A stretch of 64,000 nt of DNA from an uncultured Elusimicrobia bacterium (GCA_963702895.1 OY969767.1:1056001-1120000), one strand, 5' to 3'; shown: positions 9,051 to 55,629, counted from the first letter of the stretch. Numbers and translations: made by a program. The notes: generated by a model not told the origin, from the sequence alone.

Positions 9051-9856
9051 GAGACGAATCGTGACATAAAGCGCGAGAGCGCGCTATTGAAGGCCGCTTC
9101 ATTTTCCAGGTTGCTCAGGTGGCCGGCTTCGGGGATGAGGACGAGTTCGGAGTCCGGGAGGCGCTGGTGCAGCTCACGTGCGGCAGAAGGCGGCGTGATG
9201 CGGTCGTCTTCTCCCACCAGAACAAGTGATGGCGCGCGCAGATTTGAGAGAGCTCCGGTGGTATCGGTCCGGGTCGCAAGGGCCACGAGAGCCTTCTGAA
9301 TACCTTCGCTCGGGCACGAAAGGATCATGTTTCGCACAGCATGGACGACGTTCGGCTTGGAAGCCCCTGTGACAGGCGAAAAGACGCTCTTCAGAAAATT
9401 GTCCGCGAAGGCTTCCATCCCCTGCTCGCGGATTATGCGCAGGTCGGCAGAGCGTTTGAGCTTGACGGCATTGGTATCGGCTTCACTACGCGTGTCACAC
9501 AGGACGAGCCCTTGTATGGTCTCCGGTGAACGCTCGGCGCAACGCAGAGCGACGTATCCCCCCATCGAAAGACCGCAAAGCACGGCCCTTGTCACGTGAA
9601 GGTGGTCCAGAAGAGTCAAGAGATCATCAACAAACGACTCAAAGAGATAAGCGTGAAGGGGCACGCTGCTCCTTCCCAACCCTCTCTGGTCATAGGTGAT
9701 GACGCGGAAATCCCGGGCAAGAAGGGCGGCCTGCGCGTCCCAGAGGGTATGGTCAAACGGGAAGCCATGAAGAAAAACCACCACCCCTTTGGCAGGTGTG
9801 GTGGTCGTTTGGGAATCGGTATAGTAAAGCGCTAGACGATCGAAGAAGCCTTCCAC
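9047..9856 (-). CDS. Alpha/beta hydrolase (PcaD-like)
   Basis: FLHGFP, YDQRGLG, nucleophile elbow GLSMGG, GEDD, AGHLSN. Start uncertain (GTG 9856 chosen; ORF open to 10078). Confidence 0.88.
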   Translation of the reverse strand: MEGFFDRLALYYTDSQTTTTPAKGVVVFLHGFPFDHTLWDAQAALLARDFRVITYDQRGLGRSSVPLHAYLFESFVDDLLTLLDHLHVTRAVLCGLSMGGYVALRCAERSPETIQGLVLCDTRSEADTNAVKLKRSADLRIIREQGMEAFADNFLKSVFSPVTGASKPNVVHAVRNMILSCPSEGIQKALVALATRTDTTGALSNLRAPSLVLVGEDDRITPPSAARELHQRLPDSELVLIPEAGHLSNLENEAAFNSALSRFMSRFVS

Positions 9857-43293: not shown

Positions 43294-46200
43294 ATGCGCG
43301 TGTCGCGTTCGGGGATATCTATGCCTAAATGGATTGTACGCATCGTCGCTTTGCTTCTGGTTCCCTGCCTGGCCGGGGATGCGAGCTCCACACTACCGGC
43401 GCTCGCCCGCCCTGATGTGTGGCGGGCGTTATTCCCGGCCGGTGCCGCCACCTTTAAAGACTGGAAAGCGGCGCTGGTCGCAGATCCAGCTCTGGCATCC
43501 GCGTATGCCTCGTATCCCCAAATGTCACCCGACATCAGACCGCTGAGCCGAGCTAAGGAGGCAACGGACCCAGCCGTTTTTGAATCACAGGCCCTGATCC
43601 TCCCCCTCTGCGCCATGCTGCTCGTCGGCGCCGCCGGGAAACCGTTTCTCCATACCTACCGCGCGCTTTCTGGATACACGCAAGCGCTTGGATCGACGAA
43701 GCGCCGAGGCGGGCCAAGAGGTATTACTCGCAGAAAGAAACAGCCCGGCAGATTGACGCATCAACGGTCCCGCAGGTCGTCCGGTCACCATGCAATCGCA
43801 CAAAGGCCAGGAACGTCATTAACGCGTCCGGTCTATCGTATGGGAGTTCAAATACAACGAGTGATCTTTCCGATCGTCAAAGTCTTCGCTCTCGACGATC
43901 AAGGGGGCTGGCTGGAACGTACATTTGTGTTCCAGTATTCCAACCTCCATGAATTCAGAAAGACAAAACATCCAATGCCTCACTACTTGAACGTAGAGGA
44001 TGATCGAATAAAGGAAACCATTCGGTATCTCGCGGAGGCGATTGCGCCTGGTCTGATTAATACAGCAAATGGCTTTTCTCTGGGAGATCTGATTCGCAGC
44101 ACCACGCCCCTTGGCAGCGGCACGATCGAGATTTTCTTTTCCGTATCGATGGTCGATGAGGAATGGGTCATTCAACACGAGAGCCAACAACATATTGAAG
44201 GCCGTTTGGGAGAAGTGCTTCTACGCGCTTTCCACGATCTTCATCCCTCTCAAAACACGCCTCAGCCAGAATCTGGAACAGTTTGGTTCGAGGCATCTCC
44301 TGCTCCCGCTGCCGCGCCGGACAGTGCTGCATCTCATCGGCCAGCCCGTGGGGGTTCCTCGTTCGGTAAACCGCGCGACGAGCGTCACTATCCGTACGGA
44401 ATCGATGGACCCAATAGCCGCTGGTGGAACCGCTTTCCTTTGTCCCCTTCGCCAGTCCCCAGTCTGAGCCGGAGCGGCCGCCACGGCATGCCGGGCGTGC
44501 CGGCGCTCTCCCGCGGGAACAATGACGCTCAGAATGGGCCGAGACGGTCTCCCTCCGGAGCTAGAGATGCAGCGAGTCGGGCGACGAGTTCCTTCTTGGT
44601 GAGAAACGACCATCTTTTCTACGCGACGGACTACGATCCCCCTGCGCTGCGGGCTGATGTGCGATTAATTCGTCACGGGGAGACCCTTGGGCAAAAACGC
44701 AAGATATTCCAAGGGAACCGGGACAAAGCACAGAATCAATTGGGCGAGGAAGGCCATCGACAAAAGGTTAGCGCCGCAGCTCTCTTATTCCGAGATTTTG
44801 AAGACGTGCTGCGAACGTCGCCGGAGGATATCGTCATCATCGAGAGCCCCTTGGGTCGCGCCGTCGACACTCGCAAAGCGTTTACGGACTTGGTCGCTAA
44901 GCGTTTGAAACGTTCACTCACCGTGGAGACACTGGACTTGGCTCGCGAAATCGATTTTGGCCGGTGGGACGGCCTCAGCGAAGAGGAAATTCTCAAGAAG
45001 TGGGGCCTGGACGAATTGGAGCGTGCGAAACGCTATCGTTACGAGGTTGACCCGACGGTTGTCTCGGAGGGTGGAACGTCTTACCTGGATTTCTTGACCC
45101 ACCAGGCAAGCGATCTGTTGACGTACATTAACGAGAAACACGCGGGCAAAACGGTGCTCCTCTTCGCCCATGGAACATTGGGAAGCGCTCTGAGCGTATT
45201 GCTGTCATACCCCGAAGTGGTCACAAAAGAAGGTCACATTGACTGGCGGGCAATGAATATTCCAAACGCCGTGCCCTTTCAATTGCAGCGCTATTCGCGA
45301 CCCGCCGCGGATTCGGCTACGCCCACCGCGGGCCAGCCCGCTAGCCCTGAGCGGTTCGGCAGGCTCACCGCAAGCGAGCTCGCCCTGAGCGAAGTCGAAG
45401 GGAGTCGAAGGGCCGCCGCGCCGGATACGGCGGACACGGAGACAACAGAAACACCGACACGGGGACGCGGAGAAACACCCATTGAAGTTTCCCCGCGTCA
45501 CCCCGTCGCCGCGTCTGCGCGTCCGACGTCCGATCCCGCCGCCGCGTCAACGGATCCTGACAGTATCGGATCCACAGACGCCAATAAGGATCATCGACAT
45601 CACCCACCCATCGGCAATAACCCGCACGATGTCCCCGCCGCACAGTTCCCTGTTCGACCCGCTTGGGTCTATGAGCCTTCGGTTCCACAGGAAATGAGGT
45701 CTGAATTGGAGGATATGCTCCTAAAAGGACCTCATCTGCGATCGGTTCTGGAACGCGCTGCAGATAAGACGCGGCACCCGGTCACAATTGCATTTCAAGC
45801 CTATATGAACATTGCGGCCAGAATGGGATATACCCCCGAAATGGGATATTCCATTATGTTTTCTCAGGAATGGTTGGACGATAATGAACCAAACGCATTG
45901 GGCGCTCTTGAACATGAAGTAGCACACATCGGGGTCTATGTCGACGGCATCGCTAACCTGGAGGATGACCGAACTTTTCAGACGAGTATGAGAACCCGTC
46001 CTCGCAATGATTTCTCCCATTCCGTATTGCAAGCGCTCTCCGATTTTATTGCAGTTTGCTATCAGCTCGAGCTAAATTGGGTATCGGCCGCCAGTTATAT
46101 CCTGGACGTGGTCGTCGCGCTGAATCAAAAGAGTCATGCTCGGTGGGTCAACATGGCGCCCGGGGAACAGACGCGACAGGCTGCTTTCCAATATGCACTG

Positions 46201-49200
46201 CACTATCTACGGAGTTTTATGGCTTTTGATCATGAGAACAGGGGCGTTGATCCTGCGACTCGCGAAACCTTTACATTGGCCTTCAAAGACATTTTAACAA
46301 CCGAGGAAATGACAGTAATCCGTGAAGCGCTCAACGAATCACTGAGGGGCATTCCCCTCACCCATTTGACTCATGCAGACTTTTTTGATGCGTTATGCAA
46401 TAAACTCTACACGCTCGTAGGCTCACTTGCTAAACATTCTCGCGCTGCCGCGCCGGGCACAGCCGACACGGAGACACGGGGACCCCCCGCCACTGAGGCA
46501 TTGGCGGGTCCGCCAAGAAGTAGTGGCGGAGGAGACACGGGGAATCAAGGAGCAAGCGATGGCCCCTCCGCTTTTGACGTTTCCCCGCGTCCCCCCCTCC
46601 CCGCGTCCCCGCGTCCGACGCCCAAACCCGCCGCCGCGCCGCCGACAGTCGAACCGGCGAATGGGCGAGCCGGCGATCTGGCGAAAGACCCGCCAAATGG
46701 TTCGCCGACACACCCCGTCGCCAAGTCGCTGACTCGACCGTCCGATCCCGCGTCGGGTTCGACTTCGCTCACCACAGGCCCTGAGCGAGCGGGAGCGAGT
46801 CGAAGGGCTCCCGCGCTGGAAAGTGCTGATGTGAGAAATGGTTCAGAAGAATTGGACATTCTAAGCCCAACAATCGACGCTTTGGTCAATCAATTGTGGA
46901 AAAGCATTTCACTCAATGACGCTGTGGGAAGATCACAAGCGCGGCGAGAATTGGAAGCCCTTGGGTTTAGTGTTCAAATTGGATTTTCACGTGAAATGCA
47001 TCCATATTCTGATCCACAACATATTGAAGCGCTTACGATTTATCAGACGTTAACGAAAATGGCGACTCCTGAGCAGCTCCGCTCCATCCGAGACGTTCTT
47101 TCGCATGGGATGCAAAATATCGCCAAATGGGGAGGTGGCAGAGGATTTTTATTAATGCGGCTGAATACCGAAGCAAGGGCCTTTCAAATTGTGATGGGAG
47201 ATTCTGGATTGGGAATCACATATGGCGAGGGGCCTCTGAAAGGCAGCCACGCACCGATTCATGAGGCGGTAAAACTCGGACAATCGTTCGCTGCTGGAAG
47301 CGATGGGGGAAAAGGGCTGGCTTATATGGTGATCGATCTCGACGACGTCTCTGTCACTAGCATCACCCCTGAAGACGGAGTTGCCCGCGGCCATTGGTGG
47401 AGAAAAGGATGGCAACGAGAACGCAGATTGAAGAGTAATCAAAACTTACCCTCACAGGGATTAAAGATTGTTGGCCAAAAACTTCTTGGCCCCGCCGCCG
47501 CGCCCGCCACTACACCGTTGGCGGGCAAGCCGGGCGCAGCCGACACGGGGATCGATTCACCGCGTCCCCGCGTCCCCCCTACTCCGCGTCATGATCTCTC
47601 CGCGTCACCGCGTCACCACGTCGCCGCGTCTGACTCTGTCACGGAGCCCGCCGCCGCGCCGGAACGCTTGCCCTCCCAGTTGAAAGGGAAATGGGCGTGG
47701 TTGTCGAATGCCTGGGGGGAAGCGTTCCATTGGCTCCTGGCTCCGGCGTTTGGGTTTCAAGACGCCCGGATGGTCTGGCAGAAGGACCAGGCTCCTTACG
47801 TGCATGTCCCCGGCTTGCCGGCCCGCGGCGTCCGGGCGTTTCTAATGGCGGCCGTGCATCCGCTGATCAATCTTTTCTGGACCCTTTTCCCCTGGCTCAT
47901 TTGGGACCAGCTGGCGGGTCTTCCTCAAGGCCCTCCGGCCCAGATCCTGATCACCGCGCTGATTCTTCACGCCGTCCTCAACGCCTACGGTTTTCTGGGC
48001 AACCTGATCAGCTCCTACGTTTCCCTGGTCCCATTGACTTTCTATGAGTATGACCGCGCCTCCGACCACCGCTTGATCGCCCGGCCCCGTTTCTCTATTT
48101 CCGTTCCGCGGTGGGAGGTTAAAGCCAACTCGGACTGGAACCGGATGGTTTACACGCTTTCGCTTGGGCGTCTTGGCCGCAAACCGGAGGGGGATGACCT
48201 TCATTCCGAACTGCCGCGGGGCGCCACCCCGGAAGACCGCGCCGCGTCGCCGCGTCGCCGCGTCCCCGCGTCTGCGCGTCCGCCGTCCTATCCTGCCTCG
48301 ACACCTCTTTCGTTCAAGCAGAAACAAGCTTTCATTCTCGCTCACGAGGACCGTCTTGGGGACCTCAAAAACCCTCGCCATAAGCGCGTCTTGCGCAGAT
48401 ATTTCCTGGAAGGAAAGACGCAGGAGGTCTTGGCAGCCGAATTGGGTCAAGGCCAGAGCTCAGTGTCTTCATTAATAGCACGGGCTTTCCGAGCGCTTCT
48501 TGATTGGGTGTATCCCGATGAAGCGTCAGACCTCAAATTTGTGCGTGATCACGAAGACCGCCTTAGGGAACTCAACAACCCTCGCTATGAGAGCATTTTG
48601 CGCGGGTATTTCCTGGAAGGAAAGACTCACGAGGTCTTGGCAGCTGAATTGGGTATCTCCGTTCGCTCAGTCTCTGACTCAAAAAGAACAGCCATCCGAG
48701 TTTTTCGTGATAAGGTGAACCCTGATGAAGCGTCAGACCGCAAATTTGTGATCGACCACGAGGGCCTGCTTGGGCAGCTCGCTCCTTCCCAAGTGCGCGC
48801 ATTGACCGGGTATTTCCTGGAAGGTAAGACCCTGCCAGAATTGGCGCACGCTTACGGCATCACAAAACAGGCGGTGGCCGAAGCAAAAGACCTCGGCTTG
48901 AGACAACTGCGAAGATGGGTTAAAACTCATGAGTCGCTTCTCCAGGCGCTCGTCGAGATGGATGGGTTGGTCACAGTCACGCGTATCAGCCGCCAGGTCG
49001 GGGTGACTGCGCTGAGGGTCAATTCTCATGGGGGTGTCACGGGACTGGTCGCTGAAGCGGCACCGCTGCGCGCGCTAGCGAGGCTGGAAGCGGGTCCCCT
49101 TTTCACAACGAGGCCGAAAAGAGACCTCAGTCTTCGGGACAAGGGAATGACGCGACACCGGCAGGCGACGGGATTGCCGCCGCCGGCGAAGGAACAAACC

Positions 49201-51171
49201 AAAGGGAATTCCTTCCAGGAATCTGTGAATGCCCGATTCAAATCGGGAACGAAGTCTGAATTGACGGAATTCCTGGGAAGCTTAACGTCTGATCAACGGA
49301 ATCGATTAACGGATGTTCAGCGCCGTTTGCTTCTTTTTGTCTGGCTTTTCATCGATGACCCTATGGGCGGAGACCATTACGGAAAAATTGGTGAAAAGCT
49401 AATTGATTTCCCGATGCAAACATGGATTCTCGGGGACCAATCCGAGCGCCAATCTGATCCGTGGATTGCCATGACCGGGGTGGCAAAAACTCTGCAATCT
49501 TTCATCTATGAGCTAAGCTTTCACTGGCAGCGTGGGATCCCCTGGCGCCGAAAAACGATGATTGATGCTTTACAAGGTCCCACCACGGACTTGCTGGGCG
49601 CCGATACATACCAACGATTGGCCGTCTTAGCGAGGGAGCGTCGCTATCCAAAGAAGGGAAATCGCAGCACCCGTTTGGCCGGGATAGACTCCGATGACAG
49701 GATTGTTGATAGCATCGGTGGCATGGACTGGGCCAGGGGTGAATGGTTCAGCAAATACATTGACACGCCGTATTATGATGCTTATGCAGGTCTTATTCTC
49801 GCCCCTACCGCTGCGTCGAATGATCCGACAAAAATAAATCCAGCCCAGACCCCGCTAGCGCGCGCCCTCTGGTTGAAAATCGCCGGGAAAAGCGCGACCA
49901 ACACCCGGGCGGAATCCTGGTTTACGGCGGTCCTCGAATGGCTTCCCTGGCTGGCGCTGGTGGGGGCAGCGGCGCTCCAAGCCCTGCATTCGCCGAGTGG
50001 TTATTCCTGGCTGCTGATCCCGGTCAGCGCTTCGATCGCGATGATCTTTTTATACGCCCTGCACGCGTGGGTCCCCCGGTGGGCCCCGCCAGGCGTTGAA
50101 CGCGTAAAAGTCGGGCGCGAAACATGGCCCCTGGCGGCCGGCTTGTTTGCTGTGGACGTCTTGGCGGGCTTCTCGGTGGCTTGGGGCGTGGGGTTGGCGG
50201 CGGTGCCACTCGTTCTGCTGGGGTGGTTCCTTCACGCCAGGCACGACCGGCGAATCTTCAATCAACGGACGACAGGCGACCGCGATTTTGGAAAAACGGG
50301 ATTGAGATTCTTTGTCCTTGGCCTTGGAACGATCTGGCTTGGACGGCGGTGGCCGCCCGGTAACGCCAGCTATTCAGATCCTTCCGAAGAGGAAATCGAT
50401 AAACATCTTGAAGAAGCGTTCGTCTCGATGGGGAACAAGGACGGTGTCGTCATGCTGGATACCGCGGCCGCCTACGGCCGATCGGAGGAGCGCCTCGGGC
50501 GCTTCTTGCTAAAACGTCCCGATCTGGCGCGACGCGCTTTTATCGCCACGAAGTGGGGTGAGGAGTTTGATCCAGTGACGAACCGATCGTGGAAGGATTT
50601 CTCGGTTCAAAATCTGAGGGCCTCTTTCAAGCGGAGCCAGGATCACCTTGGCAAAGTGGACCTGCTTTACATCCACATGTCCACGGACGCCTCCGCGGAT
50701 GTCCTGCGCGACGAGGCTGTGCGGCAGGAGATGGAACGTATGAAAATCGATGGGGAGGTGCGGCTCATCGGCGCATCGATCTCCAATGAAGCGATCCTGG
50801 CCGAGGCTATAGAACAAGGCTCACTGAATGGCTTCGATGTGATCCAGATGCCGGCCCCTCTCTTTTTGAAGCGGCCCGCTTTGGCTTCGGCCTTACACCA
50901 ACGTGGCTTCGCCGTTGTTCTTAATTCCCCTGTCCGCAAAGCGGACAATCAGAATCCCGAAAACGCAATCCGTGAATTGGCCAACCGGCCCGAGGTTTCC
51001 ATGATTCTCACGGGGACCCGGATGCACCTGGGAGAAACGGTGAGCTACCTGGGCACACCTCCCAGCGCGCCCAAAGGAAGGCTTCCGCTTTGGCGGCAAT
51101 GGAAAAACTGGCTGTTTGCGCCGGCGGATAAAAACGCTCGCTTCTCTCATCGGGTCCGGGCTGCCGCGTAA
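43294..51171 (+). CDS. Giant 2625-aa multidomain mosaic protein
   Basis: Uninterrupted 7.9-kb ORF: signal-like N-terminus, RHG phosphatase, HEVAH, RsbT-like ATPase, three sigma-region-4 HTH, TMs, aldo-keto reductase. Start may be ATG 43321. Confidence 0.88.
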   Translation: MRVSRSGISMPKWIVRIVALLLVPCLAGDASSTLPALARPDVWRALFPAGAATFKDWKAALVADPALASAYASYPQMSPDIRPLSRAKEATDPAVFESQALILPLCAMLLVGAAGKPFLHTYRALSGYTQALGSTKRRGGPRGITRRKKQPGRLTHQRSRRSSGHHAIAQRPGTSLTRPVYRMGVQIQRVIFPIVKVFALDDQGGWLERTFVFQYSNLHEFRKTKHPMPHYLNVEDDRIKETIRYLAEAIAPGLINTANGFSLGDLIRSTTPLGSGTIEIFFSVSMVDEEWVIQHESQQHIEGRLGEVLLRAFHDLHPSQNTPQPESGTVWFEASPAPAAAPDSAASHRPARGGSSFGKPRDERHYPYGIDGPNSRWWNRFPLSPSPVPSLSRSGRHGMPGVPALSRGNNDAQNGPRRSPSGARDAASRATSSFLVRNDHLFYATDYDPPALRADVRLIRHGETLGQKRKIFQGNRDKAQNQLGEEGHRQKVSAAALLFRDFEDVLRTSPEDIVIIESPLGRAVDTRKAFTDLVAKRLKRSLTVETLDLAREIDFGRWDGLSEEEILKKWGLDELERAKRYRYEVDPTVVSEGGTSYLDFLTHQASDLLTYINEKHAGKTVLLFAHGTLGSALSVLLSYPEVVTKEGHIDWRAMNIPNAVPFQLQRYSRPAADSATPTAGQPASPERFGRLTASELALSEVEGSRRAAAPDTADTETTETPTRGRGETPIEVSPRHPVAASARPTSDPAAASTDPDSIGSTDANKDHRHHPPIGNNPHDVPAAQFPVRPAWVYEPSVPQEMRSELEDMLLKGPHLRSVLERAADKTRHPVTIAFQAYMNIAARMGYTPEMGYSIMFSQEWLDDNEPNALGALEHEVAHIGVYVDGIANLEDDRTFQTSMRTRPRNDFSHSVLQALSDFIAVCYQLELNWVSAASYILDVVVALNQKSHARWVNMAPGEQTRQAAFQYALHYLRSFMAFDHENRGVDPATRETFTLAFKDILTTEEMTVIREALNESLRGIPLTHLTHADFFDALCNKLYTLVGSLAKHSRAAAPGTADTETRGPPATEALAGPPRSSGGGDTGNQGASDGPSAFDVSPRPPLPASPRPTPKPAAAPPTVEPANGRAGDLAKDPPNGSPTHPVAKSLTRPSDPASGSTSLTTGPERAGASRRAPALESADVRNGSEELDILSPTIDALVNQLWKSISLNDAVGRSQARRELEALGFSVQIGFSREMHPYSDPQHIEALTIYQTLTKMATPEQLRSIRDVLSHGMQNIAKWGGGRGFLLMRLNTEARAFQIVMGDSGLGITYGEGPLKGSHAPIHEAVKLGQSFAAGSDGGKGLAYMVIDLDDVSVTSITPEDGVARGHWWRKGWQRERRLKSNQNLPSQGLKIVGQKLLGPAAAPATTPLAGKPGAADTGIDSPRPRVPPTPRHDLSASPRHHVAASDSVTEPAAAPERLPSQLKGKWAWLSNAWGEAFHWLLAPAFGFQDARMVWQKDQAPYVHVPGLPARGVRAFLMAAVHPLINLFWTLFPWLIWDQLAGLPQGPPAQILITALILHAVLNAYGFLGNLISSYVSLVPLTFYEYDRASDHRLIARPRFSISVPRWEVKANSDWNRMVYTLSLGRLGRKPEGDDLHSELPRGATPEDRAASPRRRVPASARPPSYPASTPLSFKQKQAFILAHEDRLGDLKNPRHKRVLRRYFLEGKTQEVLAAELGQGQSSVSSLIARAFRALLDWVYPDEASDLKFVRDHEDRLRELNNPRYESILRGYFLEGKTHEVLAAELGISVRSVSDSKRTAIRVFRDKVNPDEASDRKFVIDHEGLLGQLAPSQVRALTGYFLEGKTLPELAHAYGITKQAVAEAKDLGLRQLRRWVKTHESLLQALVEMDGLVTVTRISRQVGVTALRVNSHGGVTGLVAEAAPLRALARLEAGPLFTTRPKRDLSLRDKGMTRHRQATGLPPPAKEQTKGNSFQESVNARFKSGTKSELTEFLGSLTSDQRNRLTDVQRRLLLFVWLFIDDPMGGDHYGKIGEKLIDFPMQTWILGDQSERQSDPWIAMTGVAKTLQSFIYELSFHWQRGIPWRRKTMIDALQGPTTDLLGADTYQRLAVLARERRYPKKGNRSTRLAGIDSDDRIVDSIGGMDWARGEWFSKYIDTPYYDAYAGLILAPTAASNDPTKINPAQTPLARALWLKIAGKSATNTRAESWFTAVLEWLPWLALVGAAALQALHSPSGYSWLLIPVSASIAMIFLYALHAWVPRWAPPGVERVKVGRETWPLAAGLFAVDVLAGFSVAWGVGLAAVPLVLLGWFLHARHDRRIFNQRTTGDRDFGKTGLRFFVLGLGTIWLGRRWPPGNASYSDPSEEEIDKHLEEAFVSMGNKDGVVMLDTAAAYGRSEERLGRFLLKRPDLARRAFIATKWGEEFDPVTNRSWKDFSVQNLRASFKRSQDHLGKVDLLYIHMSTDASADVLRDEAVRQEMERMKIDGEVRLIGASISNEAILAEAIEQGSLNGFDVIQMPAPLFLKRPALASALHQRGFAVVLNSPVRKADNQNPENAIRELANRPEVSMILTGTRMHLGETVSYLGTPPSAPKGRLPLWRQWKNWLFAPADKNARFSHRVRAAA

Positions 51172-51231
51172 TATCCCCCTCTGAAGCTGATTCAAATCTC
51201 AAATGGAGTGATCCTTTGAAGCAGATCCAGT

Positions 51232-51292
51232 GATTAGGCAGGTTCTCCTTGAAAAATTAAGCAGGTTGGCTGAGAGATTAGGTAGGCTCCTC
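51232..51292. repeat. Three-unit fragment of the GATTAGG repeat array
   Basis: Matches the first units of the array at 51984 with the same 23/21 spacing. Confidence 0.7.
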
Positions 51293-51303
51293 CCAGAGAA
51301 GCG

Positions 51304-51816
51304 CTATTCATGCTTGAAGCCTTTGATCCGTAATGGGGCATCCGCCGGCTTTGCCATCAGCCCACGGATCGCGTCGAAGACCACTTTAAATTGCGCGTCG
51401 TATTTGTTTTCCAGCTCATGCAGCTTGCGGGCCAAGTCTTTGTGAGTGGCCAACATCTCTCTGATCCTTACAAAGGCATCCACAACCGCGAGGCTTGCTT
51501 TCACGGCGGTCTCACTATTGAGAACGCAAGCCAGCATGATCGCGCCATGCTCCGTGAAAACAAGGGGCAAATAACGTCGCCCTCCGTGGGCCATTCTTGA
51601 GGTCGCATTTTGCGACCTCAAGCGGCGCGCTTCCCCTTCGGCAAGCTGGAACATATATCGAGGCGGGAACCGGATTCGATTTCGCTTCACCTGTTCATTC
51701 AAACGTTTGGTCGTTACTCCATAGAGTTCCGCCAGATCTTCGTCCAGCATCACTTTATATCCACGAATCAGATAAATATACTGCTCAATCTTGATGCTCG
51801 GTACAGGTTTATTCAT
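51304..51816 (-). CDS. ORF6N/KilA-N-domain DNA-binding protein
   Basis: IRGYKVMLDEDLAELYGV, QVKRN..RFP, FTEHGAIMLA.VL.S; GAGGAG SD before ATG 51816. Confidence 0.92.
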   Translation of the reverse strand: MNKPVPSIKIEQYIYLIRGYKVMLDEDLAELYGVTTKRLNEQVKRNRIRFPPRYMFQLAEGEARRLRSQNATSRMAHGGRRYLPLVFTEHGAIMLACVLNSETAVKASLAVVDAFVRIREMLATHKDLARKLHELENKYDAQFKVVFDAIRGLMAKPADAPLRIKGFKHE

Positions 51817-51979
51817 GGGCTCCTCCTCTCCCTTAGATGGAGAACACCCGAAAATATTCACTGCTTAGACAAAGAGTTCAGACCCATCCGAGAACCCATT
51901 GCGTTTCGCATTTCGCCTTTTACATTCTTCATTTTGACTTGAGACACACCAGCGGTCGCAAGAGATGAAGCAGCTTCGT

Positions 51980-52272
51980 CAAAGATTAGGCAGGTTCCCC
52001 TGGAAAGATTAAGCAGGTTCACGGAAAGATTGAGACGGCTCCTCGAAGAACGAGACGGTTGGTCGGGAAAGAAAGAGACGGTTGGCAAAGAGAATGAGAC
52101 GGCTCCTCGAAGATTAGGTAGGTGACCCCGGAAAGATTAGGCAGGTTGGCCGAAAGATTAGGTAAGTTCCTCGAAGATTAGGTAAGTTCCCCGCGAAAGA
52201 TTAGGTAAGTCGACCGAAAGATTAGGTAAGCTGGCGGAAAGATTAGGTAAGTTGACCGAAAGATTAAGCAGG
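51980..52272. repeat. Direct-repeat array A, 14 units of about 21 bp (GAAAGATTAGGTAAGTTggcc)
   Basis: Unit spacings 23,21,20,23,21,20,23,21,20,23,21,21,21. Confidence 0.9.
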
Positions 52273-52592
52273 TCTGTCCGCGCCGGACGGCACGGGTTGG
52301 TACAGCGTGGCGGGGTCACGGGGATCGCCGGAGCGCTTGATCAGGCCGCGGTCCATGAGGTTGCCCAGGATTCTTAAGGTGGCCGTGCGCGAAAGGTTTA
52401 GCAGCTTTTCCACATCCTCCCGGCGCAGGCCGGCGCTCTGGCGCGCGGCGTCCAGGATCATCTTCTCGTAGCGTTCCCGTTTGCGGCTGACCCAGCGGTT
52501 TTGGGTGGAGGGGGGCAGGGGGTGACGAAGGCGTCGGCGCCGCGGCCTGGCCTTCGCCCTCGAGCTGTTGTTTGAGCCCCCGTGCGCCTTTT
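52264..52592 (-). pseudogene. 5'-truncated, frameshifted paralog of the 4TM-wHTH gene (3' HTH part only)
   Basis: Aligns with 54545-54873; extra G in the G-run near 52510; 65-aa HTH ORF remains at 52264-52461. Confidence 0.8.
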
Positions 52593-52699
52593 CAAACAGG
52601 TCGAACAGATCAGGTCAAGCAAATCCAGGTTCCAAACACGCTTCATCGCAAAGGATGTGGAAGGCGAGCGCAGGGTTCTGTTATACAATCATCGTCAAG

Positions 52700-53347
52700 A
52701 TGACGCCAAAGGATCGTTACGATGTGTCCGATTTGCCGGAGGCGCAGTTTGAGCCGGGCTCACGAAGGCAGGTTCTGCGCAATCGTTTAGGCATCAGAAC
52801 GATTGCCGCCATGGAGAATGCCGAAGAGCTGGCCTTGAAAAAGGCGACAGACATTCTTCTGCATACCTACTCAAAGGACCATCGCTTTAAGGCCAATGAC
52901 ATCCGTCATATGCACCGGCTTTGGCTATCGGACATCTACGGCTGGGCAGGCAATTATCGGAGGGTCAATCTGAGCAAGACGGGATTCATGTTTGCTGTTG
53001 CCCAGCACGTTCCCGGATTGATGCAGGAATTTGAAACGACTGCTCTGAAAGAATGCACCCCTTGTCATCCTGGGGATATTGAGACGATTGCAGAACATTT
53101 GGCGAAGGTCCACGTTGAACTCGTGCTGATACACCCCTTCCGGGAAGGAAACGGACGTGTTGCCCGGCTACTCACGACCTTCATGGCGCTCCAGGCCGAT
53201 CTGCCGCTCCTGGATTACAGAAGCATTCTGGGGAAATCGACACCCGTTTATTTTGCCGCCATTCAAGCGGGCATGAAACGAGACTACTTGCCCATGCGGA
53301 AAGTGATGAAATCAGTGATTGCGCGTACGCTCAGGCGGCTTTCTTAA
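52700..53347 (+). CDS. Fic-family AMPylase toxin
   Basis: Canonical HPFREGNGRVAR motif; N-terminal VLRNRLGI; WAGNYR. Confidence 0.93.
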   Translation: MTPKDRYDVSDLPEAQFEPGSRRQVLRNRLGIRTIAAMENAEELALKKATDILLHTYSKDHRFKANDIRHMHRLWLSDIYGWAGNYRRVNLSKTGFMFAVAQHVPGLMQEFETTALKECTPCHPGDIETIAEHLAKVHVELVLIHPFREGNGRVARLLTTFMALQADLPLLDYRSILGKSTPVYFAAIQAGMKRDYLPMRKVMKSVIARTLRRLS

Positions 53348-53501
53348 ACAGGCGTATTTTCTGCTTTAAGGTGCGGAGCGCCGTGGCAAAAGAACCCGTT
53401 TCGACGGCGGTAGAAGAGGCGACGTTCAGCGTGAGCGCCTTTTCGTATTTGCGCCGGTCTCGAAGGTAGGGGCTCGTCGCCAGCAGTGATTTCTTTTTCA
53501 T
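53331..53501 (-). CDS. Putative Fic antitoxin, 56 aa (below ORF-track cutoff)
   Basis: MKKKSLLATSPYLRDRRKYEKALTLNVASSTAVETGSF...KAA; SxxxE inhibitory-like motif; own TG-TAGACT -10 6 nt upstream. Confidence 0.7.
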   Translation of the reverse strand: MKKKSLLATSPYLRDRRKYEKALTLNVASSTAVETGSFATALRTLKQKIRLFKKAA

Positions 53502-53567
53502 GAAACAAGTCTACCATGATGGCCGCACCAATTCCAGACTTCCCAGCCGTTGCAGAAAGGACCTCCT

Positions 53568-54314
53568 ATGAAATTCGAGCTTTCTGACGAACAACTGAAA
53601 AATCTGCTGGTTCTGGCGTATCTGGGCGAATGGATGGCTAATGCGACCAGGGAAGAGCCGATCAAAGACTATGAGCAAGCCGCTTCCAGGATTTACGCCC
53701 TGGCCCAAGGAACCGCGCTGGAGCGCTACGTGGACTACGATGATCAGTCGCGGCGGTGGTGGCCCAGCAAGGAGCTGGACGAAGCAGCGGAACCGTTGCG
53801 CAGCGATTATGACGATGAGACGTTCTGGGACGAACTGCTGGACCGCCTGATCGACCGGGACCTTGCCGCAACATACGGGGTTGGGATTTTGGGTTCGAAG
53901 GACCGTGATAAATATTGCGCCCTGCGAGAGCCGATCGAGTCACGCTACGGGACGGAGTTTGAACGCTTTGGGATTGATCGCCTCAAGCTGCCCGAGGGTC
54001 TTCCTGAAGAAGACGCTTACTCCCCCTCGCCGGCCCAGGCGACAGCGATGGGCTTGGCGTGGTACCGGTCCGATCAATGGGAACAGCTTCGGTCCATCTC
54101 CGCGGACCGCGATGAGCTCGAAGAAAGATACGTGGAATGGTTAAAGACCGCTTCTAACCTCTTTTCCCAGCTCACGCTGCGGGGTCAAGAGATCAAAAAG
54201 GTATTAGTGGACGTCAATGATCTCGCCAAATGGTGTAAAGCCAAGGGCCTTCTTGTCGATTCCCATTCCCGATCTGCTTTCGTCGCGGACCAGCTCCGAA
54301 CGACGAAGTCCTGA
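53568..54314 (+). CDS. Hypothetical acidic two-domain protein
   Basis: Open frame with AAAGGA SD before MKFEL; no family recognised. Confidence 0.7.
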   Translation: MKFELSDEQLKNLLVLAYLGEWMANATREEPIKDYEQAASRIYALAQGTALERYVDYDDQSRRWWPSKELDEAAEPLRSDYDDETFWDELLDRLIDRDLAATYGVGILGSKDRDKYCALREPIESRYGTEFERFGIDRLKLPEGLPEEDAYSPSPAQATAMGLAWYRSDQWEQLRSISADRDELEERYVEWLKTASNLFSQLTLRGQEIKKVLVDVNDLAKWCKAKGLLVDSHSRSAFVADQLRTTKS

Positions 54315-54391
54315 CAAGCATCCGCTTCCCGGAGGTTGGCAGTACGAATGAGCGCCGAAGGACGCCAAAGCGACCCGAGGCCGGATTGGCA

Positions 54392-54553
54392 AATAGATTA
54401 ACCGGGTTCCTCGAAGATCGGGCCGGTTCCCCGAAAGATTAGGCAGGTTGGCCGAAAGATTAGGTAAGTTCCTCGAAGATTAGGTAAGTTCCCTGCGGAA
54501 GATTAGGTAAGTTGGCCGAAAGATTAGGTAAGTTAACCGAAAGATTAGGCAGG
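54392..54553. repeat. Direct-repeat array B, 8 units of about 21 bp
   Basis: Unit spacings 20,21,21,20,23,21,21; same consensus as array A. Confidence 0.9.
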
Positions 54554-55282
54554 CTTGTCCGTCGCAGCCTGCCCGGATTGGTAGAGCGTGGCGGGGTCAC
54601 GGGGATCGCCGGCGCGCTTGATCAGGCCGCGGTCCATGAGGCTGCCCAGGATCCTTAAGGTGGCCGTGCGCGAAAGGTTCAGCAGCTTTTCCACATCCTC
54701 CCGGCGCAGGCCGGCGCTCTTGCCAGTGGCGTCCAGGACAATCTTCTCGTAGCGTTCCCGCTTCCGGCTGACCCAGCGGTGTTGGGTGGAGGGGGTAGGG
54801 GGTGACGAAGGCGGCGGGGCCGCGGACTCGCCTTTGGCCTCGAGCTGCCGTTCGAGTTCCTGATGCGCTTTTTCCTCCACGCGGACGCTCAACCACCGGG
54901 AGGCACTCGATCCGATGTAGAACCCGAGGACTTCGAAGGCAATCAAGGTAAGTCCCTTGGGGTAGGCCAGGCGCGCCGGCCAGATCTCGGAGCCGAGCAC
55001 CGCCACGAGCAGGAAGACCGCCCATAGTCCGACGAACCATTCCCCTTTGAGCCGGAAAGGCGCGGGTTGCGTCTCTCCTTCGGCCGCCAGTTTCTCCGGA
55101 TGGAAGCCGATCGTCCACCGGTGGACTTCTTTCCCCCCCACATAAGCCGAAAGCAATGCCAGGTAGAAGGCGTTGGCGGTGCTGACGTTGATCTGGACAT
55201 GAGCGGCGGTGGCGAACTCCGCGACCTGCACGCCGAAAAGAGCCAGGGTGTAGAGCGCGCTCAGCCAGAAAAGAAAGGTCAT
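54545..55282 (-). CDS. Membrane protein (about 4 TM) with Pro-rich linker and C-terminal winged-HTH-like domain
   Basis: Four hydrophobic segments, then LRREDVEKLLNLSRTATLRILGSLMDRGLIKRAG...TLY. Confidence 0.8.
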   Translation of the reverse strand: MTFLFWLSALYTLALFGVQVAEFATAAHVQINVSTANAFYLALLSAYVGGKEVHRWTIGFHPEKLAAEGETQPAPFRLKGEWFVGLWAVFLLVAVLGSEIWPARLAYPKGLTLIAFEVLGFYIGSSASRWLSVRVEEKAHQELERQLEAKGESAAPPPSSPPTPSTQHRWVSRKRERYEKIVLDATGKSAGLRREDVEKLLNLSRTATLRILGSLMDRGLIKRAGDPRDPATLYQSGQAATDKPA

Positions 55283-55284
55283 GC

Positions 55285-55629
55285 TCAAGGTTTGATCTCC
55301 CTGCGGCGATGATGAAAAACGGGGCGCTGATTTTCCCAGCCTTCTGTCCTAAGCAAGGATCTCTTGGTTCGAATCCCCCCGCGGCCGGAGTAGCCGGTCA
55401 TCTGGCCGCCCGCGCCCAAGACGCGGTGGCAGGGGATCCGGGGCGCGAAAGGGTTGGCGGCGAGCGCCCTTCCCACCGCGCGCGCGGCGCCGGGCCGGCC
55501 GATCGCGCGCGCGAGCCAGCCATAGGTCCTCGTTTGCCCGCGCGGGATTCTGGCGCAGGCTTTCCAGACGCTTTGGTAAAAATCCGGGTACTTCTTCATC
55601 TGCTCGCGAAGGTCTCGGGCAAGTTTCAC
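55285..55629 (-). CDS. MGMT/Ogt-family methylated-DNA cysteine methyltransferase (binding domain only)
   Basis: IPRGQTRTYG, ARAVG.A, IPCHRV, GYSG; start 55629 or 55599. Confidence 0.9.
   Translation of the reverse strand: MKLARDLREQMKKYPDFYQSVWKACARIPRGQTRTYGWLARAIGRPGAARAVGRALAANPFAPRIPCHRVLGAGGQMTGYSGRGGIRTKRSLLRTEGWENQRPVFHHRRREIKP

Follow-up and report, generated by a model that had tools for sequence, protein, structure and literature searches.

The stretch of DNA analysed here (the window, 64,000 nt) belongs to the genome of an uncultured Elusimicrobia bacterium (GCA_963702895.1, OY969767.1:1056001-1120000) and carries on its minus strand, at positions 54545-55288, a gene whose protein combines a four-helix membrane domain with a C-terminal winged helix and whose stop codon lies inside the first unit of an array of short repeats. 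Proteins of this build, with private, phased self-arrays, constitute a real and undescribed family; full-text searching, in a collection short of most subscription journals, returned no description of it. The winged helix very probably binds its own array, and the whole is best read, with a probability that we put at about 55%, as a self-limiting one-gene module.

The gene, its protein and the adjoining arrays

The features on which the analysis rests are the following (window coordinates).

54545..55288, minus strand: full-length gene, 247 aa from a TTG start (open reading frame (ORF) and homolog alignment)
54884..55282, minus strand: membrane domain, approximately residues 3-135, two related two-helix hairpins
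54575..54784, minus strand: basic helix and winged helix, residues 169-238 (DSSP of the structural model, structural matches)
~54632-54673, minus strand: recognition helix, residues 206-219
54393..54556, no strand: array A, 8 direct units with spacings of 20, 21 or 23 bp, putative binding sites of the protein
52264..52593, minus strand: truncated paralog, linker and winged helix only, with the same recognition helix as the full gene
51981..52275, no strand: array B, 14 units with a 64-bp super-period, the first core 6 nt before the stop codon of the truncated paralog
51229..51297, no strand: array C, 3 units (51231-51275), an orphan copy 80% identical to the distal 66 nt of array B

Since close homologs begin with MSMT, the gene is more likely to start at the TTG; the alternative ATG at 55282 would give 245 aa. 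A preliminary description of this locus had found the right gene (54545-55282), of which the start probably needs correction, as does the length of 246 aa. The protein consists, in this order, of the four-helix membrane domain, a Pro/Ser linker, a basic helix (RKRxRYE) and the C-terminal winged helix, and the AlphaFold2 (AF2) model reproduces these parts with a predicted local distance difference test (pLDDT) score of 82.8. DSSP places helices at residues 169-190, 196-203 and 207-219 and strands at 223-226 and 235-238 of the model. In agreement with the preliminary description, the C-terminal part is thus predicted to be a winged helix; its structural matches are generic members of the fold (Z 7-8.7), and a Pfam match to a MarR_2-like helix-turn-helix (HTH) domain (E 3.5e-5) falls under the cut-off. 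The four transmembrane helices that had been proposed for the N-terminal part agree with the predicted four-helix bundle, but helices 2 and 4 are only moderately hydrophobic (19-residue hydropathy peaks of 1.16 and 1.30, against 1.77 and 2.04 for the strong helices 1 and 3). The outer loops have about 10 residues in the model and an extracytoplasmic sensor domain is not present; in this arrangement the four-helix domain would lie in the membrane and the winged helix would face the cytoplasm. Homodimer prediction returned a score of 0.00, which is no answer and counts neither way.

No convincing or consistent Pfam, PADLOC or PHROG family match was obtained for the membrane domain. The fold search gave generic helical bundles (best Z 10.4, root-mean-square deviation 3.9, under the mark that the tool sets for bundles), viral structures gave no membrane-domain match at E <= 0.001, and the ESM Atlas gave unnamed or generic HTH clusters only. 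A suggested likeness to three-helix holins obtained no support from Pfam or PHROGs and was rejected. A Rep initiator family did not appear in the Pfam and NCBIfam scans, and the fold search returned generic winged helices only.

The units of array A start between 54395 and 54542, with successive spacings of 20, 21, 21, 20, 23, 21 and 21 bp; the first 8-bp core begins 6 nt before the stop codon, the TAA being inside the first unit. In array B (unit starts 51983-52261) the spacings 23, 21, 20 occur three times and are followed by 23, 21, 21, 21, and its middle holds a block of four variant units like those of two arrays without an adjacent family gene (orphan arrays) at 1.428 and 2.698 Mb of the host genome. 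The truncated paralog has two compensating 1-nt indels in the linker, and a winged helix of 65 aa could be translated from the in-frame ATG at 52461. Together with the start of array B it matches the end of the full gene and array A in 330 of 372 aligned nt. These data bear out what the preliminary description had read from the DNA, namely that the TAA of the gene lies in the first array unit, that the diverged fragment ends in the same way in an array of its own, and that units of 20, 21 and 23 bp alternate in arrays A and B. Tandem Repeats Finder scores of the window arrays reach 153-205. In the whole 2.72-Mb genome the 15-nt core, with up to 3 mismatches, forms clusters of at least two copies at no more than 4 places, of which the window has 3, and an exact 7-mer occurs at least four times behind the stop in 109 of the 2819 six-frame ORFs of at least 200 aa in the genome; a chance origin of the window arrays is therefore excluded. 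The RNA fold of array A had a z score of 0.02, without an Rfam match at the gathering score, and the promoter and terminator scan stayed at chance level. For this region no sequencing runs are listed.

Position, phasing and orientation of the arrays in the family

A profile search retrieved 305 relatives at E <= 0.001. The 160 proteins available divide into 87 with both domains, 50 with no more than the membrane domain (some of them fragments) and 23 with no more than the winged helix. Since pattern-based scans of genome and metagenome contigs yielded one near-identical locus type only, flanking DNA comes from a single phylum, and the nearest named locus is that of an Elusimicrobia bin. The host genome (G000) has four full genes and one fragment, with an array from the stop in each, and the motif differs among the window type, the 1.394-Mb gene and the 1.249-Mb gene. 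The relative G064 holds 14 full paralogs, mostly with different motifs. In the genus, the family was not found in two of three other genomes (89% and 73% complete). Its copies are scattered in chromosomes.

Arrays were surveyed at 57 distinct winged-helix members from 19 genomes of the phylum, an array being defined as at least four copies of a 9-mer, one mismatch allowed, with p <= 0.08 on 25 dinucleotide shuffles. An array was present at 51 of the 57: 34 downstream of the gene, 14 upstream (the call is doubtful for L144) and 3 on both sides, the script having picked a wrong motif at L071; four members had none and two were without flanking sequence. The upstream class is one clade of 13 members plus L109, with sites over the promoter region, and in L014, L082 and L205 the sites of this clade reach the start codon. 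No array is present in the stretch upstream of the window gene (L027). Downstream arrays were found at none of the five members without a winged helix and at none of the four genes whose winged helix is N-terminal; it is the winged helix and not the membrane anchor that the array accompanies. The preliminary description had proposed to test whether a ~21-bp array follows the stop of homologs in other genomes. An array does so in the 34 downstream and 3 two-sided cases and lies upstream in the 14 others, and most other clades have one site per helical turn.

The tests of phasing and of covariation omit five of the 51 arrays (L071, L144 and three near-duplicates). Among 195 same-strand spacings, 86 are of 10-12 bp and 38 of 21-23 bp, with higher multiples in addition, and a cosine of 0.68 was obtained for a period of 11 (p 2e-4 in comparison with jittered spacings). 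Four members with an extra basic helix have only 20-24-bp or double spacing, as in the window. Both orientations are present in 38 of 49 arrays; this, together with the absence of RNA structure in array A, indicates that the sites are duplex DNA. An RNA repeat array (type III antitoxin or CRISPR-like) was rejected on the same fold score, Rfam result and orientation count.

Probable recognition of the array by the winged helix

One important question is whether the protein binds its own array. Self-binding is likely because arrays accompany 51 of the 57 members, the motif is member-specific and phased, and no downstream array was found at the five members that lack the winged helix; to this extent the preliminary description, which had inferred such binding, is supported. 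Covariation between helix and motif gives moderate support. In a partial Mantel test (n=46, with a tree built without the recognition helix), the three 6-residue protein windows that best track motif distance are in the recognition helix (r 0.15-0.17), positions 1-7 of which give r 0.13 (p 0.001). Of 11 members with W or Y at helix position 6, 10 have A at base 4, against 0 of 17 otherwise, and this rule applies across clades; on the tree, residue and base take 3 changes each and 4 when scored jointly, so that the changes nearly coincide. The rule was picked by eye on motifs oriented by hand, and its p-value is therefore inflated. The helices diversify fast across the family. L070 and L066 each have the same helix and motif as members of another clade and have kept their own wing. 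A blind prediction, written before the DNA was seen, was that new paralogs would carry upstream arrays whose core is TG and which lack A at base 4; it came true in two of three.

Several of these results also weigh against the interpretation. A window in the membrane domain reaches r 0.151 in the partial Mantel test, nearly as high as the helix, and the helix signal is gone among distant pairs (r ~0). The blind prediction failed in the third paralog (L207, no array), and L205 had in addition a 4-copy cluster of another motif 180-204 nt downstream.

A possible roadblock at the stop codon

In the self-limiting module that we favour, several copies of the protein would bind one face of an array, with one site per two helical turns here and one per turn in most other clades. 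In the upstream clade this would be ordinary repression at the promoter and the start codon. In the downstream class, which includes the window gene, the first site would be at the stop codon, and RNA polymerase meeting bound protein would halt short of transcribing the stop; the nonstop mRNA thus left would lead to SsrA tagging and degradation. The locus would be held at the membrane while protein is bound, as a by-product, and the helix/motif pair of each paralog would allow several copies to run independently in one cell. That the job of the array is to cap the expression of its own gene seems fairly likely; that it does so by roadblock and nonstop mRNA is tentative, at somewhat less than even odds. 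A toxic or stress effector is our guess for the membrane domain.

That one clade carries its array at the promoter instead suggests that what all members have in common is self-regulation. The downstream neighbours (21 on the same strand, 12 convergent, 3 none) are unrelated and lie in either orientation, hence the downstream arrays have no shared target. The first downstream site falls between -32 and +18 nt from the stop in 27 of 33 arrays, 10 of which start in coding sequence, a count of less force in that a start near the stop is partly expected in short intergenic gaps. A transfer-messenger RNA (tmRNA) gene is present in the host (G000, 2,034,607-2,034,975). According to PMC13584721, a DNA-bound protein blocks the polymerase and tagging takes place about eight codons upstream; the first site of the window gene (-6 nt) and those of the 27 arrays, if they are indeed bound, are within that distance. 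Roadblocks with tagging are described for LacI, at O3, and for CcpA in PMC3711431 and PMC3985003. Given the site near the stop, this precedent and the tmRNA, bound protein should give nonstop mRNA and cap its own level.

Further objections concern this mechanism and the reading as a whole. Six of the 33 downstream arrays start at +31 to +91, too far for nonstop mRNA. No monomeric small winged helix is known to act as a strong roadblock. The orphan arrays (six in the host genome and five in relatives) are not explained by autoregulation alone.

Orphan arrays

In the host genome, 6 of the 11 arrays have no adjacent family gene (at 432 kb, array C, and at 1.428, 2.037, 2.039 and 2.698 Mb), which argues against a strict coupling of gene and array. 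Five more orphan arrays were found in four genomes of relatives, each of which carries the cognate gene. The prediction that arrays found by motif would adjoin a family gene was rejected, with 0 of 6 new places, 5 being orphans and one a chance match in a coding region. A winged-helix remnant was looked for beside three orphan arrays of the host genome and none was found. The preliminary description had named arrays spread through the genome without link to the gene as evidence against it; this is the case in part, for the 6 of 11 orphans, which are far too few for a genome-wide repeat.

Outside the window type, motif columns are kept far better than spacers in four of six comparisons (p <= 0.001; 81/81 vs 43/68, 40/40 vs 78/104, 37/37 vs 59/92 and 68/70 vs 117/143), a test that is biased in that the motifs were defined on the gene-linked copy; this conservation, too, is a difficulty for the favoured reading. 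Of the remaining comparisons, one had p 0.003 and one was not significant, and two orphans of the window type showed no conservation of motif over spacer. Loss of the gene or copying by recombination may account for the orphans, or they may be genuine additional sites. Genuine sites among them would keep alive the tether and regulon readings considered below.

At G000:C1:2035268-2039521, beside the tmRNA gene, there are three tandem copies (1551-bp period, ~98% identical) of a gene that we take to be yhcG/DUF1016-like. Two of the three break off at nt 794 and continue into an array like that of the 1.394-Mb gene, the junction falling on a stretch similar to one unit; the tandem copies could be a real amplification or an assembly artefact. 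In another genome (L197:1347-1590, G402:C213) an orphan array lies right after the stop of a gene that is motB-like by eye and is flanked by a 41-nt duplication of the end of that gene, like a cassette scar.

Alternative explanations

Membrane-less ORFs with a C-terminal winged helix passed the array test (p <= 0.05) in 11 of 38 cases. Three of the 11 are remnants of the membrane family and one owes its cluster to a neighbour; Fic, Schlafen-HATPase_c_4 and DUF4062-HATPase_c_4 proteins are among those left. One large Fic subgroup had no arrays. Stop-codon self-arrays may be the property of a much larger family that includes soluble Fic, Schlafen and DUF4062 genes. Soluble genes ending in 10-12-bp phased repeats are L022, L091, L093, L095, L097 and L099 (weaker: L020, L064, L087, L092, L100 and L101), and the repeats of the soluble Fic, Schlafen and DUF4062 winged-helix genes often encode their last residues. 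In the broadest version, which we consider rather unlikely, a C-terminal winged helix with a phased stop-codon self-array would be a widespread control unit bolted onto toxic effectors (Fic, Schlafen, the new membrane domain); it would cap them by roadblock and trans-translation and hold them on DNA until array loss or genome degradation, and the membrane version would make an orthogonal DNA-membrane tether of each locus, up to 14 per cell, with a readable helix-to-motif code.

The same soluble genes bear on an unlikely reading that is compatible with the favoured one and adds a purpose to it. Here the protein would be a DNA-held toxic effector acting as a defence sensor, its harmful membrane domain kept scarce and parked on the array. 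Degradation of the DNA or loss of the array, as in phage infection, would then set it free or let it be over-produced. Stop-codon arrays behind soluble Fic, Schlafen AlbA_2-HATPase_c_4 and DUF4062-HATPase_c_4 proteins (L022, L091, L093, L095, L099) are consistent with it, as are the fast diversification of the recognition helices and the patchy spread of the family (absent from two of three genus genomes, 14 copies in G064). Of 104 candidate neighbours 77 were scanned, 27 having been set aside by eye as duplicates or likely spurious ORFs, and by a raw count 16 of the 77 belong to toxin-antitoxin, restriction, CRISPR or Thoeris families. However, the membrane domain has no convincing PADLOC, PHROG or Pfam match, and most soluble C-terminal winged-helix genes lack a significant array, the 11 positives among 38 including 4 that are not independent.

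The preliminary description had seen in the locus a candidate DNA-to-membrane tether or centromere-like system. As a purpose-built device of this kind, it would have its gene-linked and orphan arrays as anchor points organising or segregating the chromosome or an element. This is distinctly unlikely. The array is phased like iterons and parC/tubC, the model has a membrane anchor with a long linker, orphan motif columns are kept, and orphans were found only in genomes with the cognate gene (pattern searches of five genomes); moreover, the four gene loci of the host are at -10% to +8% of the GC-skew maximum (p ~0.002, for a statistic chosen afterwards). But no ParA, ParM or TubZ gene occurs in the window or among the 77 scanned neighbours, which include one SMC gene 465 nt from L065; the host parAB is at 126-127 kb, about 1 Mb away; and no match was obtained in 72,556 plasmids, 50,697 phages (distant member as query) or viral contigs. 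With no partition nucleoside triphosphatase (NTPase) adjacent, parAB elsewhere and no plasmid, phage or viral match, a centromere role fails its defining test. In addition, the array is over the promoter in one clade, arrays also accompany soluble proteins, and a private motif for each paralog suits regulation better than a single shared anchor. The tethering or centromere role is for these reasons not upheld as the purpose of the system; if binding occurs from the membrane, the locus would be held there as a consequence. Anchoring of the terminus is suggestive in the host genome and is ruled out as a general rule by G064, where 3 of 14 paralogs are within 62 kb of dnaA. The cumulative GC skew of G000 is lopsided, rising to +21.7k at 1.39 Mb and falling only to +15.9k; dnaA is at 2.61 Mb, parAB at 0.126 Mb, ParA-type genes are at 126, 721 and 836 kb, and there are five ParB-domain genes in all.

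A transmembrane transcription regulator with a small regulon, for which the orphan arrays and nearby promoters would be the true targets, or whose arrays would insulate convergent genes, is very unlikely. Some orphans do lie 70-300 nt upstream of a gene start (G000 at 432 kb; L176; L191), the host arrays examined at 1.110, 1.394, 1.428, 1.600 and 2.698 Mb and array C are between convergent genes, and membrane-bound regulators are widespread according to PMC10269533. On the other hand, orphan neighbours share no function and other orphans are just after a stop codon or inside a truncated gene, the next gene across relatives is more often co-directional than convergent (21 vs 12), and the outer loops of ~10 residues hold no sensor domain. 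Lastly, it is hardly credible that the arrays are repeat DNA or recombination joints travelling with accessory cassettes in a repeat-rich lineage instead of binding sites. In favour of this reading, the ORF6N-domain gene of the window is flanked by array pieces 80% identical, both arrays at 2.037-2.039 Mb run into a gene at a unit-like spot, and the G402 orphan is flanked by the 41-nt duplication. Against it, the motifs are paralog-specific and follow the helix, units are spaced in step with the turns of the DNA, motif positions are conserved where spacers have diverged, and no array stands behind the members that lack a winged helix.

Comparison with known systems

The family is not a member of the partition systems; it works most like the LacI O3 roadblock and the SoFic-type autoregulators, with the build of a transmembrane transcription regulator. 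As for LacI at O3, the protein would have a site of its own across the end of its gene, with truncated mRNA and tagging as the result, and the host has tmRNA (PMC3711431, PMC3985003 and PMC13584721). LacI has two palindromic operators and a loop and mainly represses another operon, whereas the present family is anchored in the membrane, comprises many paralogs with private motifs, has arrays of 4-14 short, phased sites and lacks a common target downstream, and its roadblock is a proposed one. SoFic, an effector with a C-terminal winged helix, binds its own promoter according to 10.64898/2026.07.09.737422, where CccR is cited as another autoregulator of this design. Unlike in these two, the effector here is a membrane domain and not an AMPylase, and the sites are mostly at the stop codon; sites in the own promoter are not found in the window gene and do occur in the 13-member upstream clade. 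The likeness is one of design, and homology of the winged helices is not implied.

In ToxR and CadC the DNA-binding domain is at the N-terminus, and there are a single membrane helix and a sensor on the outside. The present family begins instead with a membrane domain of four helices, the outer loops of which are very short, and its sites form a self-array. The common trait is a DNA-binding domain anchored in the cytoplasmic membrane, with membrane helices and DNA-binding domain in one chain, as predicted here (PMC10269533); the word Elusimicrobia is absent from the main text of that source.

Plasmid centromeres of the parC/tubC kind and iterons are short direct repeats in helical phase beside the gene of a DNA-binding protein, and the window family also has phased short repeats beside its gene. 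It differs from them in having no adjacent partition NTPase or Rep gene, in being chromosomal, in its multiple orthogonal paralogs and in its membrane anchor.

If binding is confirmed, the family amounts to a natural collection of small winged helices with their operators, dozens of pairs whose code can be read in part and several of which are orthogonal in one cell; they would be useful for the study of specificity evolution and for fixing loci of choice to the membrane. The long-standing question whether roadblock with trans-translation, known mainly from LacI and CcpA, is a dedicated design of autoregulation could also be tested, and sister clades with comparable arrays, at the promoter in one and at the stop codon in another, offer a ready comparison. 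The four-helix membrane domain represents a new and widespread family in its own right.

Neighbouring genes and additional observations

The genes that surround the arrays in the window are listed below.

51304..51861, minus strand: ORF6N-domain gene between arrays B and C (Pfam ORF6N, E 1.8e-31)
52697..53347, plus strand: Fic-family gene (Pfam Fic, E 8.3e-18), cargo between the two gene-plus-array copies
53331..53501, minus strand: 56-aa ORF, convergent with the Fic gene and overlapping its 3' end
53550..54314, plus strand: gene of ~250 aa without a Pfam match, convergent on array A

The ORF6N gene was apparently inserted into an array. The 56-aa ORF contains a stretch that we take to resemble the Fic inhibitory motif and is a candidate Fic antitoxin; it overlaps the end of the Fic gene convergently instead of lying upstream. 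On the plus strand, a 2625-codon mosaic ORF (window 43294-51171; phosphatase, three sigma region-4 units, aldo/keto reductase) ends just before array C, and the orphan array at 1.428 Mb likewise lies just beyond a giant ORF of similar kind.

An inverted repeat cluster of 7 copies spaced by 14 bp (L003, ~9490-9580; G000 near 1.6015 Mb) is located 170-260 nt upstream of the 1.60-Mb paralog and is unrelated to the downstream motif of that gene. The four-helix membrane domain also stands alone in proteins of 130-170 aa (P0051 and 32 others, alignment A4), with a pLDDT of 89, no family name and conserved positions Y, E, W, G, E, W and K; one cluster of these is labelled Patescibacteria. In L050/L118 (G297:C45) the membrane domain follows an N-terminal segment that is HTH-like by eye and precedes a long C-terminal part, and a 7-site array lies upstream of the gene.

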